The position numbers were made by a program, and so were the translations under genes. From a phage, in assembly GCA_012439925.1 (NCBI GenBank), contig GCA_012439925.1_4519.1: a stretch of DNA of 64,000 bases; one strand, written 5' to 3'. The notes beneath the pieces were generated by a model. It was not told where the DNA came from. It searched no databases and was given only the letters and a program-made list of their open reading frames with translations. This document shows positions 42,734-46,376 of this stretch, piece after piece (position 1 is the stretch's first letter; each line of letters starts with the position of its first letter).

Positions 42734-43726
42734 ATGTTACCTGTCATCAGAAAACTTATTTCTCCAAAAGAACTGGCTGAGATTATTCCTTTGTCGGAAG
42801 CTTACGCATCACAAGTGGCTTCTCATCGCGAACAAGTTAATTCGATTATGAACGGTGAAGACCCACGCAAACTTATTGTTGTAGGTCCTTGTTCAATTCA
42901 TGACCCTATTGCTGCTGTTGAATACGGCAAACGTCTGGCTGAACTTCAAACTCGTCTTCCTAATGTTCTGTTAGTGATGCGCGTTTATTTTGAAAAGCCT
43001 CGAACTACCGTAGGTTGGAAAGGTCTTGTAAATGATCCATATCTTGACGGAAGTTTTGATATGAACCACGGTCTTATAGTTGCACGAACATTGTGTCGTA
43101 AACTTCTACGTATGGGACTTCCATTAGCAACTGAAGTATTAGACCCATTCACGATTAAGTATCTTTCTGGTATTTTCTCATGGGTTGCTATTGGCGCCCG
43201 TACGACTGAAAGTCAGACACATCGTGAAATTGCTTCAGGTCTACCGATGTGCGTAGGCTTCAAGAACGCAACCAATGGTTCTATTAAAGTAGCTACAGAC
43301 GCGATGTATAGTGCCGCCTGGCCTCATCGGTATATGGGTATGGACGTCGATGGTACTGTAGGCATTGTTGAAGCTGAAGGTAATCAGAATACGCATATCG
43401 TATTGCGTGGCGGGACCAACGGCCCGAACTATCATTCTTCTGATATTCAAGAAGCTTCTAACAAAGCAAGGGCAGTAGGTCTGAATCATTATGTAATGGT
43501 TGACTGTAGCCATGCAAACGCTGATGGGCATTATAGCAATCAAATTGGTATTGGTAAAAATTTAGCAGCTAATGATTTGGTCAAAGGAATTATGATAGAA
43601 TCATTCCTACATGAAGGAAATCAAAAAATTTCCGATAATATGTCCTATGGCGTTTCCGTTACCGATGCGTGCATCAGTTGGGAACAAACTAAAGAGCTGT
43701 TAACTTATATTAATAAGGTTCAATAA
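42734..43726 (+). CDS. class I 3-deoxy-D-arabino-heptulosonate-7-phosphate (DAHP) synthase, AroG/AroF/AroH-like
   Basis: 330 aa; signature motifs GPCSIHD, RVYFEKPRTTVGWKGL, GARTTESQ, DCSHAN, ESFLHEGNQ and DACISWE, with metal ligands (Cys, His, Glu, Asp) in place; shorter than E. coli AroG (350 aa), including at the N-terminus. Confidence 0.8.
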   Translation: MLPVIRKLISPKELAEIIPLSEAYASQVASHREQVNSIMNGEDPRKLIVVGPCSIHDPIAAVEYGKRLAELQTRLPNVLLVMRVYFEKPRTTVGWKGLVNDPYLDGSFDMNHGLIVARTLCRKLLRMGLPLATEVLDPFTIKYLSGIFSWVAIGARTTESQTHREIASGLPMCVGFKNATNGSIKVATDAMYSAAWPHRYMGMDVDGTVGIVEAEGNQNTHIVLRGGTNGPNYHSSDIQEASNKARAVGLNHYVMVDCSHANADGHYSNQIGIGKNLAANDLVKGIMIESFLHEGNQKISDNMSYGVSVTDACISWEQTKELLTYINKVQ

Positions 43727-44307
43727 TGAAAGCTAGCACATACCTTCAGATTGCATATCTGATTTCTCAAGAATCAAAATGTTGTTCATGGAAAGTTGGC
43801 GCAGTCATTGAAAAAGATGGGCGCATTATTTCTACTGGGTATAACGGTTCACCTGCAGGTGGCGTTAACTGTTGCGAACATGCATCTGAAAATGGTTGGT
43901 TGAAGAATAAACCAATCCCAGTCATCGTTGCTGGGCATAAAGAAGGCACTACAGCATTTGGACGGGCCGATAATTTTGTTTTGGCTAAAGAACATCGGGC
44001 TGCTCATAGTGCATGGTCTGCCAATAACGAAATCCATGCGGAACTGAATGCAATTTTGTTTGCAGCTCGTAAAGGTAATTCTATTGAAGGTGCTACGTTG
44101 TATACGACACTTTCTCCATGTCCTGATTGCACTAAAGCTATTACACAGTCAGGTATTAAAAAGGTTGTATATGCAGAATTATATGACCGATCTCCTGAAA
44201 ATTGGGCAGACATTCTTAAACAAGCTGGTATTGAAGTAATTCAGTACTCTCGTAATAATCTTCGTTCTCTGAATTGGGAACAAATCCGAAACTTTTGTGG
44301 TGAATAA
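43726..44307 (+). CDS. cd: dCMP deaminase
   Basis: 193 aa as in T4; zinc-binding HAE and SPCPDC motifs. Confidence 0.95.
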   Translation: MKASTYLQIAYLISQESKCCSWKVGAVIEKDGRIISTGYNGSPAGGVNCCEHASENGWLKNKPIPVIVAGHKEGTTAFGRADNFVLAKEHRAAHSAWSANNEIHAELNAILFAARKGNSIEGATLYTTLSPCPDCTKAITQSGIKKVVYAELYDRSPENWADILKQAGIEVIQYSRNNLRSLNWEQIRNFCGE

Positions 44308-44308
44308 T

Positions 44309-44605
44309 ATGATTTTAACTGAACAAGAAACTATGGTTCTTCGTGAACGTATTAAAACTATTCTGTCTGTAGGCGTTCATTGTGTTGTATTTGAAAAGGC
44401 TAACGGTGATGTTCGTACGATGTTTGCCTCCCGTGATGAACTTGAAGTCAAATACGAAAATAACAATCCGGCAACAGAAGTTCGTTCTGAACCTCGTGAA
44501 TCAGTTCGAGCATTCGATACCAAGTTAGGTCAGTGGCGTTCTTTCCGCCTTGATAAAGTAATTTCGGTTGATGGTACTCCGGTAGAACGTTTGCTTCTTA
44601 TGTAA
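44309..44605 (+). CDS. hypothetical protein
   Basis: 98 aa from ATG just after the cd stop. Confidence 0.45.
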   Translation: MILTEQETMVLRERIKTILSVGVHCVVFEKANGDVRTMFASRDELEVKYENNNPATEVRSEPRESVRAFDTKLGQWRSFRLDKVISVDGTPVERLLLM

Positions 44606-44662
44606 TATGCTTTACGAATAGTATGGTATTATTAATCTATCGTCAAACAACAAGGAAATAAG

Positions 44663-44995
44663 ATGTCTGAAGTACAACTCCCAATTCGTGCTGTTGGTGA
44701 ATATGTCATTCTGGTTTCTGAACCCGCTCAAGCAGGTGATGAAGAAGTTACCGAATCAGGACTTGTGATTGGTAAACGTGTTCAAGGTGAAGTTCCTGAA
44801 CTATGTATAGTTCATTCTGTAGGTCCTGATGTTCCTGAAGGTTTTGTTGAAGTCGGTGATTTGACTCCACTACCAGTTGGACAAATTCGAAATGTTCCAC
44901 ATCCATTTGTGGCTTTAGGACTTAAACAACCTAAAGAAATTAAACAGAAATTCGTAACATGCCACTATAAAGCTATTCCGTGTCTTTATAAGTGA
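44663..44995 (+). CDS. 31: co-chaperonin gp31 (GroES analogue for capsid folding)
   Basis: 110 aa; near-identical to T4 gp31 as recalled. Confidence 0.9.
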
Positions 44996-45119
44996 TATAA
45001 ATAACTATATGAAGAGAACACTCTTCTAAGCGGTAGCCTACAACTGAGAGACTTGTCGAAAGAAGGTGAAATTCAGACGAACGTGGCTACTAAATATTAT
45101 CTCGAATTGAGAATTTAAA

Positions 45120-45368
45120 ATGATTAAACAATTACAACACGCTCTTGAACTGCAACGAAACGCATGGAATAACGGTCACGAAAACTACGGCGCGTCAATT
45201 GATGTTGAAGCCGAAGCACTGGAAATCCTGCATTATTTCAAACATCTGAACCCGGTACAGGCAGCTTTGGCCTCTGAACTGGAAGCAAAAGATGAACTGA
45301 AATATGCTAAGCCTTTGGCTTCTGCAGCTCGTAAAGCAGTACGTCATTTTGTTATTACCCTTAAATAA
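45120..45368 (+). CDS. rIII: lysis inhibition accessory protein rIII
   Basis: 82 aa as in T4; MIKQLQxALELQRNAWNNGHENYGASIDVEAEALEIL matches T4 rIII as recalled. Confidence 0.85.
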   Translation: MIKQLQHALELQRNAWNNGHENYGASIDVEAEALEILHYFKHLNPVQAALASELEAKDELKYAKPLASAARKAVRHFVITLK

Positions 45369-45663
45369 GTTTTAGGTGATTCGCTACCTTAAGTGCGGCT
45401 AGAAAATCGAGGAGCCGTCGAACTGTCTGATTAATGATTTGCGAATCATTATAGTTTTAAGGCCCCGGCAGTTTTACGGTGTACCTCTTGAATGTATTTT
45501 GTACTATCACGCGTCAGAAAAAGGTTATCTGTCTAAGTCGTGGTTGGTATGATGACGGGTTTATGGTTATCCTGTCGTTAAATATCCAAAACCTATGTTC
45601 CCCTTGAGGGCTTGCGCAGGCAATGTCAATAAGTCCTGCATTTTCATTTAAAGAGAATTTATA

Positions 45664-45843
45664 ATGGCAAAACAAGCTAAAGCAAAGAAAGCAGTTGAAA
45701 AGAAAGTTGATGGTACCTCTAAACGCGCTGGATACAAGCGTGGGTCGAACTCTCGTATTAATCAAACAGTTGAGAAGATCATGCGCAGAGCACGTGCAGT
45801 TCTTCGAGATGATGCTTCTCGTTTTGGAAAGGTTGTTGCATAA
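45664..45843 (+). CDS. small highly basic protein (59 aa)
   Basis: Not in ORF track; Lys/Arg-rich (MAKQAKAKKAVEKKVDGTSKRAGYKRGSNSR...); ends 5 bp before a strong terminator. Confidence 0.45.
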   Translation: MAKQAKAKKAVEKKVDGTSKRAGYKRGSNSRINQTVEKIMRRARAVLRDDASRFGKVVA

Positions 45844-45848
45844 TTTTA

Positions 45849-45872
45849 GGGAGACTTCGGTCTCCCTTTTGT
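45849..45872 (+). terminator. intrinsic terminator
   Basis: GGGAGACttcgGTCTCCC followed by TTTT; identical to the hairpin at 30834. Confidence 0.7.
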
Positions 45873-45903
45873 GCGTTTAGGGCAGAAAAAGTTTAAAAAA
45901 GAT

Positions 45904-45932
45904 GTTTACTCTCCTGTAGGATGTGTTACTAT
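45904..45932 (+). promoter_or_regulatory. T4-type early promoter
   Basis: GTTTAC 45904-45909, 17-bp spacer, TACTAT 45927-45932; shares GGATGTGTTA-TATAGACTT with the cassette at 30884. Confidence 0.55.
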
Positions 45933-45974
45933 AGACTTGTACCACCTAATCAATAAAACAACCTGGAGAACAAA

Positions 45975-46343
45975 ATGAAAATCAATCTGAACTCATACAT
46001 CAAATGTAAAGACCACGATGGTTATAAAGCTATCGAAATTAAAGAATTCCAGTGGATGTTATACAAAGAGCAATTTGAGTTCGTAGGTTGTATGACCCCT
46101 GAAGGTCCTTCTGATGATTTCTCTTGGAAAATTGTGTTAGCAAACTTTTTCACAGGTGACACATACGAATTAAAAACTATTATTACAGGTAAAATTCGCT
46201 CAGAAACATATGTTGACGAAGAAACTGGTTACTCTGAAGATGTCACATGGTATCAAAATGGACGCATTACAGCAGATAACCTGATCGAAAAAATGAAAGC
46301 CAAAGGTGTTTTAAATTTAGACAATTGGATTAAAGTTGCATAA
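45975..46343 (+). CDS. hypothetical protein
   Basis: 122-aa ORF with RBS GGAGAA. Confidence 0.5.
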   Translation: MKINLNSYIKCKDHDGYKAIEIKEFQWMLYKEQFEFVGCMTPEGPSDDFSWKIVLANFFTGDTYELKTIITGKIRSETYVDEETGYSEDVTWYQNGRITADNLIEKMKAKGVLNLDNWIKVA

Positions 46344-46347
46344 AACA

Positions 46348-46376
46348 GTTTACTTTGGTACAGGTTATGTTATTAT
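46348..46376 (+). promoter_or_regulatory. T4-type early promoter with embedded inverted repeat
   Basis: GTTTAC 46348-46353, TATTAT 46371-46376; inverted repeat GGTACAGG / CCTGTACC flanks the -10. Confidence 0.55.

Follow-up and report, generated by a model that had tools for sequence, protein, structure and literature searches.

The closest described relatives of the element treated here are the ToxI antitoxins of type III toxin-antitoxin systems, which act as pseudoknots bound to the toxin ToxN (PMC5449768), and in particular the pseudo-ToxI of Pectobacterium phage phiTE, annotated in that genome as 'ncRNA pseudo-ToxI; weak antitoxin to ToxN protein; site of recombination with ToxI'. A unit of this kind, a covarying pseudoknot termed E1 and several further hairpins are found in the non-coding spacer of 295 bases (45369-45663, + strand) between the genes rIII and 30.9 of a T-even phage. 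The window, that is, the whole stretch of 64,000 nucleotides (nt) that was analysed, comes from a Mosigvirus (RB69-like T-even phage) and shows 99.8% identity to phage p000y across 45000-46000. On the basis of sequence comparison, the spacer is probably best explained as a structured leader of the 30.9 message that also carries an orphan antitoxin-like decoy.

The unit next to rIII resembles the phiTE element in being 36 nt long and of matching sequence, in a putative fold compatible with a pseudoknot, in its AAAU flanks, in its non-coding nature, and in being carried by a phage as an orphan, away from any toxN (Blower et al., 2011, 2012). ToxI is the RNA antitoxin of the ToxIN abortive-infection system, and phiTE uses its pseudo-ToxI against the ribonuclease ToxN. 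On the other hand, exactly one unit is present here, whereas phiTE has 1.5 units and plasmid arrays have 3.5-5.5; the unit lies within a messenger RNA (mRNA), 5 nt after a stop codon; and the phage belongs to Straboviridae, phiTE to Vequintavirinae. Escape mutants of phiTE are said to carry 4.5-5.5 ToxI units. For the 3′ part of the spacer, the autoregulatory pseudoknot in the gene 32 leader of T4 may be the closest analogue: in both, within one phage family, an H-type pseudoknot lies 70-110 nt 5′ of the start codon of a small protein of nucleic-acid-binding type, and action in cis is presumed here. The two share no sequence similarity, the E1 model (R1) giving no match to the T4 gene 32 leader at E ≤ 10; two hairpins, E2 and E3, stand between the pseudoknot and the ribosome site in place of an unstructured AU-rich tract; and the 30.9 leader has no known protein partner.

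Two other kinds of T-even element are comparable. PeSL cassettes of T4-type phages (Arbiol, 2010; Comeau, 2014) are likewise small non-coding modules of the plastic early region with mosaic junctions; in contrast to them, the spacer lacks the TTTACW-N17-TAYWAT promoter, its modules are single-copy in the genome, and these modules are kept by RNA pairing and not as promoter or terminator signals. The T4 RNAs rnaC and rnaD (species 1 and 2) are unexplained structured T-even RNAs, and a copy of the spacer occurs in a transfer RNA (tRNA) array of two contigs (see below); however, rnaC and rnaD come from the tRNA cluster as discrete, processed RNAs, and the spacer shows no sequence similarity to them. 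According to a review of post-transcriptional control in T4, this phage has no characterised riboswitch or trans-acting RNA (PMC3014915). A ToxI-like RNA in T-even genomes is mentioned neither in that review nor in papers of the Salmond laboratory (PMC3594212, PMC5449768) and the Laub laboratory (PMC9391042, PMC10853763), and no published mention was found of a pseudo-ToxI beside rIII, of its compensated divergence in T4 or of E1, the older literature on this T4 region (Miller, 2003; Driukas and Nivinskas, 2003) lying outside the scope of the search. Pseudo-ToxI is a known kind of element; its occurrence in T-even phages and E1 are, provisionally, unreported.

The ToxI-type unit behind rIII

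The unit, termed module A, is a single copy of the 36-nt ToxI type at 45374-45408 on the + strand (AGGTGATTCGCTACCTTAAGTGCGGCTAGAAAATC), with AAAU motifs on either side at 45363-66 and 45404-07. ToxN cleaves at AA^AU. When the rIII-30.9 gap was compared by blastn with complete Escherichia coli genomes, 76 places in 53 genomes matched, 72 of them on plasmids, and comparison with PLSDB gave 210 places on 71 plasmids from Escherichia, Salmonella, Klebsiella, Pectobacterium, Hafnia, Serratia and Yersinia. All of these matches span bases 1-44 of the query only. In the arrays inspected, the matching sequence is a tandem 36-nt repeat that is followed by a terminator and then by a ToxN/AbiQ toxin gene. 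For example, pMB9_2 has an array of 4.6 units of 36 nt (AGGTGATTTGCTACCTTTAAGTGCAGCTAGAAATTT) before a terminator and an annotated type III toxin-antitoxin ToxN/AbiQ toxin, and pU90-1 has the same layout of array, terminator and toxin with units AGGTGATTCGCTACCTT(T)AAGTGCGGGACGAAAATCT. Compared with two arrays lying directly 5′ of ToxN/AbiQ genes (L106 1432-1597 and L107 2506-2640), the window unit matches at 30-32 of 37-38 aligned positions, and 32 of 35 positions are identical to the phiTE pseudo-ToxI, including all of the first 26 nt.

Two short helices of module A, GGUG (45375-78) with UACC (45385-88) and CGC (45382-84) with GCG (45395-97), had been deduced from phage comparisons before the ToxI match turned up. 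The second stem is compensated to CAC/GUG in T4 and T6, to UGC/GCA in Jiaodavirus and to AGC/GCU in Gelderlandvirus, and genuine plasmid toxI arrays alternate likewise between UGC/GCA and CGC/GCG. For the first stem there is one compensatory change (AGUG/UACU), together with an A-G mismatch in T4-type units, in a manual alignment register. By its sequence, module A is one ToxI-homologous orphan antitoxin unit of type III. Neither the spacer nor the 64-kb window contains a second ToxI unit, and tandem repetition is absent. Diverged and structurally compensated ToxI-like units are found across about eight T-even genera, T4 included, and such compensation in the stem speaks for selection on an RNA fold and against a dead relic. 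The 5′ arms of the first two inverted repeats listed in the sequence-only reading of this DNA sit within module A, which that reading overlooked. A degenerate tRNA made of module A and the repeats of that reading was considered and rejected, since ARAGORN predicts none and other phages do not keep the pairings.

The unit is not present in every relative. RB69 (L109 12344-12606, corresponding to NC_004928 132343-132605), JN02 (L009) and ABTNLsp5 (L010) share an identical and precise absence of about 35 nt that leaves TAAGTAAATCGAGG, so that presence of the unit is polymorphic within Mosigvirus and Dhakavirus. LF82-7 is without the ToxI unit and also without the long hairpin described below.

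Furthermore, many unrelated phage families contain single, unannotated ToxI-like units with 88-94% identity over 30-38 nt. Examples are found in Salmonella phage 7-11 (HM997019 37665-37701), Vibrio phage JSF10 (KY883654 20044-20081), Klebsiella phage pzk-kv7 (OR231916 47581-47615) and Acinetobacter phage PhT2 (MN864865 135299-135329), and T5-like Klebsiella phages also carry such units. Judged from these sequences, orphan pseudo-ToxI may be far commoner than the single published case.

Conserved modules upstream of 30.9

An untranslated gap of 120-416 nt (244 nt in T4) separates the two genes in every Tevenvirinae genome examined in which 30.9 follows rIII, and the comparisons below draw on 39 distinct spacers of this kind from about a dozen genera. 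In the window, rIII ends at 45368 and the next open reading frame (ORF), 30.9, begins at 45664, and the gap noticed in the sequence-only reading is thus real. It is also empty of credible ORFs, as had been stated: across the 39 spacers no ORF of conserved length or frame was found, the ORFs present being 15-72 aa long and broken by 1-nt indels, and some genome records annotate differing spurious 'hypothetical proteins' inside it. An upstream ORF, MMTGLWLSCR* at 45549-45581, was considered as a leader peptide and rejected: its frame and length vary (1-nt indels in T6 and VR5), it has no Shine-Dalgarno sequence, and its counterpart in PG7 is M* only. The gap is well conserved all the same. Measured as percent identity at positions aligned with T6, it reaches 95%, compared with 92% for 30.9, 87% for gene 31, 85% for rIII (65% at third codon positions), 80% for the spacer between 31 and rIII and 64% for that between 30.9 and 30.8. 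In the comparison with Salmonella phage STML-198, the 3′ core of the spacer is 84% identical and rIII is 71% identical. The rIII-30.9 spacer is the best-conserved segment of its neighbourhood, above the flanking genes, and the outcome of an unconserved spacer, named in the earlier reading, is the opposite of what the comparison shows.

The most strongly supported structure within it is module E1 (45546-45601, + strand), a predicted H-type pseudoknot with covariation in both stems, which span 45552-45593. In stem 1, AUGACGGG (45552-59) pairs with CCUGUCGU (45571-78), with a folding z of -4.45; in stem 2, the loop GGUU (45565-68) pairs with AACC (45590-93), giving 4 bp in the window. The linker between them (45579-45589) is A-rich and 11 nt long in the window. 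Covariation was assessed in two largely independent alignments, one of 31 sequences and the other of 32 distinct sequences. Standard pairs fill 82.8% and 80.6% of the cells, respectively, against 72% and 70% when columns are shuffled and 35-50% and 33-51% when the partners are slid by 1-3 columns. Cells in which both partners have changed number 53 and 57 against 21 ± 3 in shuffles, and none of 500 shuffles reaches either value. Two stem-1 pairs (U-A/A-U; C-G/G-C/U-A) and two stem-2 pairs are unbroken throughout, and in other genera stem 2 has 7 bp, for instance CAAGGUU/AACCUUG, UUGUGAG/CUCACAA and UUAGUAG/CUACUAA.

Of 40 loci that were recovered by way of rIII, 39 contain E1, as do all of the 39 distinct spacers; T4 carries it at about 130,604-130,661 of NC_000866. 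The sole rIII locus without E1, L097, is also without 30.9, which indicates that E1 travels with 30.9 and not with rIII. That locus is T4-like (IMGVR_UViG_2706796082_000001, 2226-2345) and has rIII, a strong terminator, an early promoter GTTTAC-N17-TATAAT and an unrelated gene. In a model search E1 is single-copy in the 64-kb window (71.9 bits), and it is never tandem; the idea of a repeated operator was rejected on account of the single copy. In sequence comparison, E1 is a strongly supported RNA motif, a covarying pseudoknot linked to 30.9.

Between E1 and 30.9 lie two smaller modules. E2 (45597-45616, + strand) is a small hairpin of CCC (45601-03) with GGG (45608-10) followed by a conserved CUUGCG; different genera keep it, in part with another stem (CCUC/GAGG, for example), and four lineages have it at the opposite (5′) end of the spacer. 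E3 (45616-45639, + strand) pairs GCAGG (45616-20) with CCUGC (45635-39). Its position is always occupied by a hairpin whose sequence and length are unrelated between phages, as in GAACUGG/CCAGUUC, GGGAG/CUCCC and a 60-nt GGGAGC...GCUCCC. In the translation initiation region of 30.9 (45640-45666, + strand; AUG at 45664), a weak hairpin of AUUUUC (45640-45) with GAGAAU (45653-58) is predicted over the Shine-Dalgarno sequence, and an analogous hairpin, UCUCCA/UGGAAGA, is predicted in other genera. E2, E3 and the Shine-Dalgarno hairpin are suggestive only, as predicted structures. The GenBank record of ATK47 labels 10 bp at about 45644-45653 of the window (NC_055708 41135-41144) as 'ori type 2 repeat', with the basis not stated; no repeats or origin-like features were found around these positions.

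The 5′ half of the spacer behind module A is largely taken up by a long interrupted hairpin (45409-45487, + strand; z = -2.55), in which 45409-45427 pairs with 45467-45487. By RNAalifold it has 25 pairs, 4 of them with compensatory changes on both sides, and only 2 broken cells; compensation is seen from CCGU/ACGG to CCAU/AUGG via a G-U intermediate, and from AACUGUC/GGCAGUU to AAUUGUC/GACAAUU. Its apex is hairpin B (45432-45451, + strand; UAAUGAUU-UGCG-AAUCAUUA), and a deletion in ECO07P1 and STML-198 removes exactly the apical part. Module D (45508-45542, + strand; z = -1.67) has an inner stem of CAGA (45515-18) with UCUG (45528-31), an outer stem of CACG (45508-11) with CGUG (45539-42) and a conserved loop AAAAGGUUA. 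The inner stem is changed to CAGC/GCUG in LF82-7 and in two other spacers (L038 and L059), the outer stem to CAUG/CAUG in LF82-7, and T4 is without D.

These structures are largely other than the inverted repeats from which the sequence-only reading had started, and comparison among phages speaks against two of its three. The region holds two perfect 8-bp inverted repeats; at least two occur in 12% of 1000 dinucleotide-preserving shuffles (mean 0.46), and such repeats are no commoner here than in shuffled sequence. The coordinates of the long-range repeat were given correctly, TGATTCGC (45377-45384) pairing with GCGAATCA (45441-45448), and as a conserved structure it fails: T4 and T6 have two uncompensated mismatches, the 5′ arm is absent in JN02, RB69 and ABTNLsp5, and the 3′ arm is absent in ECO07P1 and STML-198. 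The second, a GCGGCT/AGCCG hairpin, does exist, with a stem of 5 bp instead of 6 (CGGCT 45396-45400 with AGCCG 45413-45417); it keeps only 3 bp in T4 and clashes with two covarying helices. Because its AGCCG arm is used by the long hairpin and the GCG arm by module A, neither this hairpin nor the long-range repeat is supported. The third, read as a 7-bp hairpin AATGATT-tgcg-AATCATT, has in fact 8 bp (TAATGATT 45432-45439 with AATCATTA 45444-45451). It is hairpin B, and it has held up, two pairs being altered on both sides in ABTNLsp5 (AUCGAUU/AAUCGGU).

Modules A, the long hairpin with apical B, D, E1, E2 and E3 are present, absent or reordered between genera, and the length differences among the 39 spacers consist in gain, loss and reordering of such small modules. 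The gap thus appears to be a transcribed mosaic of small independent RNA modules that have been gained, lost and reordered among T-even genera, and its top local conservation together with several covarying helices supports a function at the RNA level. The strand can be read from the pairs: G-U is the commonest pair at several positions of the E1 and long-hairpin alignments, which indicates an RNA from the + strand and excludes the - strand. Folded as the + strand, the RNA reaches -72 kcal/mol; folded as the - strand, it reaches -58.

Regulatory signals were scanned for as T4-type early promoters (TTTACW-N16-18-TAYWAT), a MotA-type middle pattern, the late TATAAATA box, and sigma-70 promoters and terminators. 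The window has 14 exact matches to the early consensus against 1 expected, 13 of them on the + strand, and 19 with one mismatch, in addition to 10 MotA-type middle-promoter matches and 11 late TATAAATA boxes. By these consensus scans no early, middle, late or sigma-70 promoter and no terminator lies inside 45369-45663, and the nearest signals are outside, which makes the gap a spacer inside a (31)-rIII-30.9 transcript. In the 3′ strand of the long hairpin, T6 carries an early promoter with one mismatch, TTTACG-N17-TACTAT, and a 6-nt insertion disrupts the window version. A RegB site at GGAG (45411-45414) was considered and is unlikely, as it lies inside a conserved stem and is followed by CCGUCGA and not by the A-rich consensus (PMC3014915, PMC1702504). 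ARAGORN finds no tRNA or transfer-messenger RNA. The Rfam scan that had been suggested for this region places no family on the spacer: there is no match at the gathering threshold in 64 kb, and on the spacer only chance small nucleolar RNA matches at E > 2. Rfam lacks the gene 32 pseudoknot as well (PMC10690425), and absence from it is therefore no proof that an element is unknown.

Neighbouring genes and modules in other phages

On the + strand the gene order is cd, 31.1, 31, rIII, spacer, 30.9, 30.8 and 30.7; rIII, 30.9, 30.8 and 30.7 are annotated in near-identical or related phage records. The rIII coding sequence (45120-45368, + strand) matches PHROG 1457, lysis inhibition accessory protein, with E 7.6e-43. 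The 30.9 coding sequence (45664-45843, + strand) specifies a very basic protein of 59 aa, which falls in PHROG 1427, of unknown function, and has no Pfam match; prediction of its structure from the single sequence gives two helices at a predicted local distance difference test score (pLDDT) of 73. Upstream lie gene 31 (44663-44995, + strand), gene 31.1 (44297-44605) and cd (43726-44307, + strand). The product of 31.1 matches Pfam WYL_2, an Sm-like SH3 beta-barrel, with E 1.5e-9, and such a predicted fold near an RNA-rich region makes nucleic-acid or ligand binding possible. Directly 5′ of cd is a gene (42734-43726, + strand), annotated as aroG-like in related Mosigviruses, for a 330-aa AroG-type DAHP synthase (phospho-2-dehydro-3-deoxyheptonate aldolase); T4 has no counterpart at the equivalent position.

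Upstream signals on the + strand are a MotA-type middle promoter at 44608-44632, a late-promoter consensus TATAAATA at 44996-45003 and a sigma-70-like site at 45072-45100, the latter two upstream of rIII. Behind 30.9, an intrinsic terminator GGGAGAC-UUCG-GUCUCCC-UUUU (45849-45870, + strand), annotated as a terminator in near-identical phages, closes the transcription unit, and 3′ of it is an early-promoter consensus (45905-45932, + strand). Terminator and early promoter pairs of the PeSL type, at 45849-45932 and 46349-46376, separate 30.9, 30.8 and 30.7. The spacer between 31 and rIII contains a long hairpin at 45032-45091 (GUAGCC...CUGA..ACUU-GUCGAAAG-AAGGU..UCAG...GGCUAC, z = -1.87), which overlaps the sigma-70-like promoter. 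It is homologous to the long hairpin at the E3 position 5′ of 30.9 in Jiaodavirus, Karamvirus and Moonvirus, with CUGA/UCAG changed to CCGA/UCGG between them, and one RNA module is thus used at different junctions across genera.

There are further modules in other spacers, namely F and X150, which are absent from the window. Module F, seen in three spacers (L016, L018 and L054), is a hairpin CCCAC-CAUG-UGUACG-CAUG-GGUAAC with a conserved loop, and its stem covaries between CAUG/CAUG, CUCUG/CAGAG and CUUUG/CAAAG. X150 is a highly conserved, unannotated structured RNA of about 138 nt in the rIII-30.9 spacer of 407 phage records, one copy each, from Jiaodavirus, Marfavirus, Kanagawavirus, Karamvirus, Moonvirus, Dhakavirus and some Tequatrovirus. 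It is found, for example, about 120-257 nt into the spacer of Klebsiella phage LilPanda (L016, OK499980) and about 137-274 nt into that of VR5 (L008), and its position relative to E1 varies by genus. RNAalifold gives 38 pairs, 16 of them with compensatory changes, with a GNRA hairpin and an apparent pseudoknot between a loop and an upstream segment; X150 has no Rfam match and no E. coli match.

A stray copy of the spacer is found in two contigs. In L101 (IMGVR_UViG_3300045988_074297, 1795-2139), and likewise in L102, a full T4-type spacer with the 30.9 start codon is joined to the last 27 codons of rIII. The copy sits in an array of 13 tRNAs, between tRNA-Gly and tRNA-Gln, with a 13-nt direct repeat TTTATTGGAGATT at both ends, and the T4-type ToxI-like unit begins with sequence that matches the 5′ end of the L101 tRNA-Gln (TGGAGATT). 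From the sequence, this looks like circle-type or microhomology recombination.

Possible roles of the spacer

That the spacer has the anatomy described above is held with high confidence, and a structured 30.9 leader with an orphan antitoxin-like decoy is probably the best account of it as a whole; the functions in cis and as a decoy, which are proposed from sequence, are put forward more tentatively. With promoters 5′ of gene 31 and of rIII and a terminator 3′ of 30.9, the spacer would be transcribed and remain untranslated, as a chain of independent + strand modules. E1-E3 would serve the 30.9 message as a cis-acting leader or operator, setting how well it is translated and/or how stable it is, and the small basic gp30.9 is a candidate for a factor bound to this leader. 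The ToxI unit may be a decoy for ToxN-family toxins that is weak or specific to certain ToxN homologues, or may be a seed for expansion or for recombination with toxI.

Several observations weigh against this account. On the side of the leader, the whole region (298 nt) folds no better than shuffled sequence on either strand (z = -0.67 on the + strand and -1.04 on the - strand), stem 2 of E1 is only 4 bp long in the window, E2 and E3 are not thermodynamically significant, and the hairpin over the Shine-Dalgarno sequence, at only -1.9 kcal/mol, is not significant either. On the side of the decoy, the unit is single, and a single phiTE repeat is reported to be unable to form an active pseudoknot owing to phasing, escape being by expansion or toxI capture (PMC3594212). 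RB69, JN02, LF82-7 and ABTNLsp5 carry no unit. An E. coli plasmid toxIN restricts T2, T4 and T6 strongly and RB69 much less (PMC9391042, PMC10853763): the former have a diverged unit, and RB69, which has none, is the least restricted T-even phage (PMC9391042). The unit as the cause of the low toxIN sensitivity of RB69 was rejected, since RB69 has none. The known counter-defence to toxIN is a protein, TifA (PMC9391042, PMC10853763).

The whole spacer might instead be a modular anti-defence RNA island in which the ToxI mimic, E1 and X150 are trans-acting decoys or antitoxin mimics against RNA-binding toxins or sensors, with 30.9 as an incidental neighbour or a partner. Module A, as a demonstrable antitoxin homologue, fits this reading, as does E1, a small pseudoknot with strong covariation, since all type III antitoxins are small pseudoknots (PMC5449768); the modules are gained, lost and reordered independently like accessory cassettes, and the copy within the tRNA gene array of two contigs lies in stable-RNA territory. 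We consider it unlikely nevertheless: besides A, no module has a match among plasmids or in E. coli even at E ≤ 1, E1 occurs once and not in tandem, and its strict co-occurrence with 30.9 fits a role in cis. If it were true, phage lineages would be swapping decoy modules as hosts change, X150 being carried by about 400 sequenced phages. A still lower probability is given to a stable small RNA, whether the spacer as a whole or E1-E3, that is cut from the mRNA and acts in trans, its targets being messages or proteins of the host or the phage. Loops are very highly conserved as well as stems, AU-rich single-stranded linkers between the modules could be RNase E sites, and the review cited above notes that no trans-acting small RNA has yet been characterised in T4 and that relatives may reveal candidates (PMC3014915). 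Against this, the spacer has no promoter or terminator of its own, which also speaks against the discrete small-RNA gene offered in the sequence-only reading; E3 lacks a proper U-tract, similarity to rnaC and rnaD is absent, and no complementary target turned up, without a systematic search.

The geometry of E1 brings a ligand-sensing riboswitch aptamer controlling 30.9 to mind, as a hairpin whose loop pairs with an A-rich tail resembles preQ1-I, with classical H-type geometry, invariant loop nucleotides and an A-rich linker; yet no Rfam family is found on the spacer even at E = 10, save two chance small nucleolar RNA matches, no terminator/anti-terminator alternative is conserved, and 30.9 has no metabolic annotation, which makes this very improbable. 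The remaining two readings, both of them raised at first sight of the sequence, are hardly credible. In one, the stretch is neutral spacer sequence or what a lost mobile element, for instance a homing endonuclease gene, has left behind as a scar. Block insertions and deletions, with lengths between 120 and 416 nt, would suit it, and it is opposed by the top local conservation, by the many compensatory changes, and by the 39 distinct spacers, in which there is no endonuclease gene or remnant and no ORF of conserved length. The other is a DNA-level site, that is, an origin, a packaging site or a recombination hotspot, for which the ori label in ATK47 and the circle-like rearranged copy with 13-nt direct repeats in the two contigs could be quoted; against it, the covariation of the pseudoknot and the many conserved G-U pairs point to one strand and to RNA, the spacer showed neither iterons nor repeated motifs, and no result pointed to a replication or packaging site.

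The leader-and-decoy account, which we continue to prefer, bears on the best-studied phages, T4 and its relatives, and on E. coli toxIN versus T4, a current model of abortive infection and counter-defence. Even if the functions are modest, about 300 bp in which many annotation pipelines place spurious 'hypothetical proteins' are structured RNA. The structurally constrained ToxI unit beside rIII is present in some Mosigviruses, diverged in T4, T2 and T6, and precisely absent in RB69, which provides natural contrasts for RNA mimicry, and E1, carried by T4 too, would give a first handle on gene 30.9.

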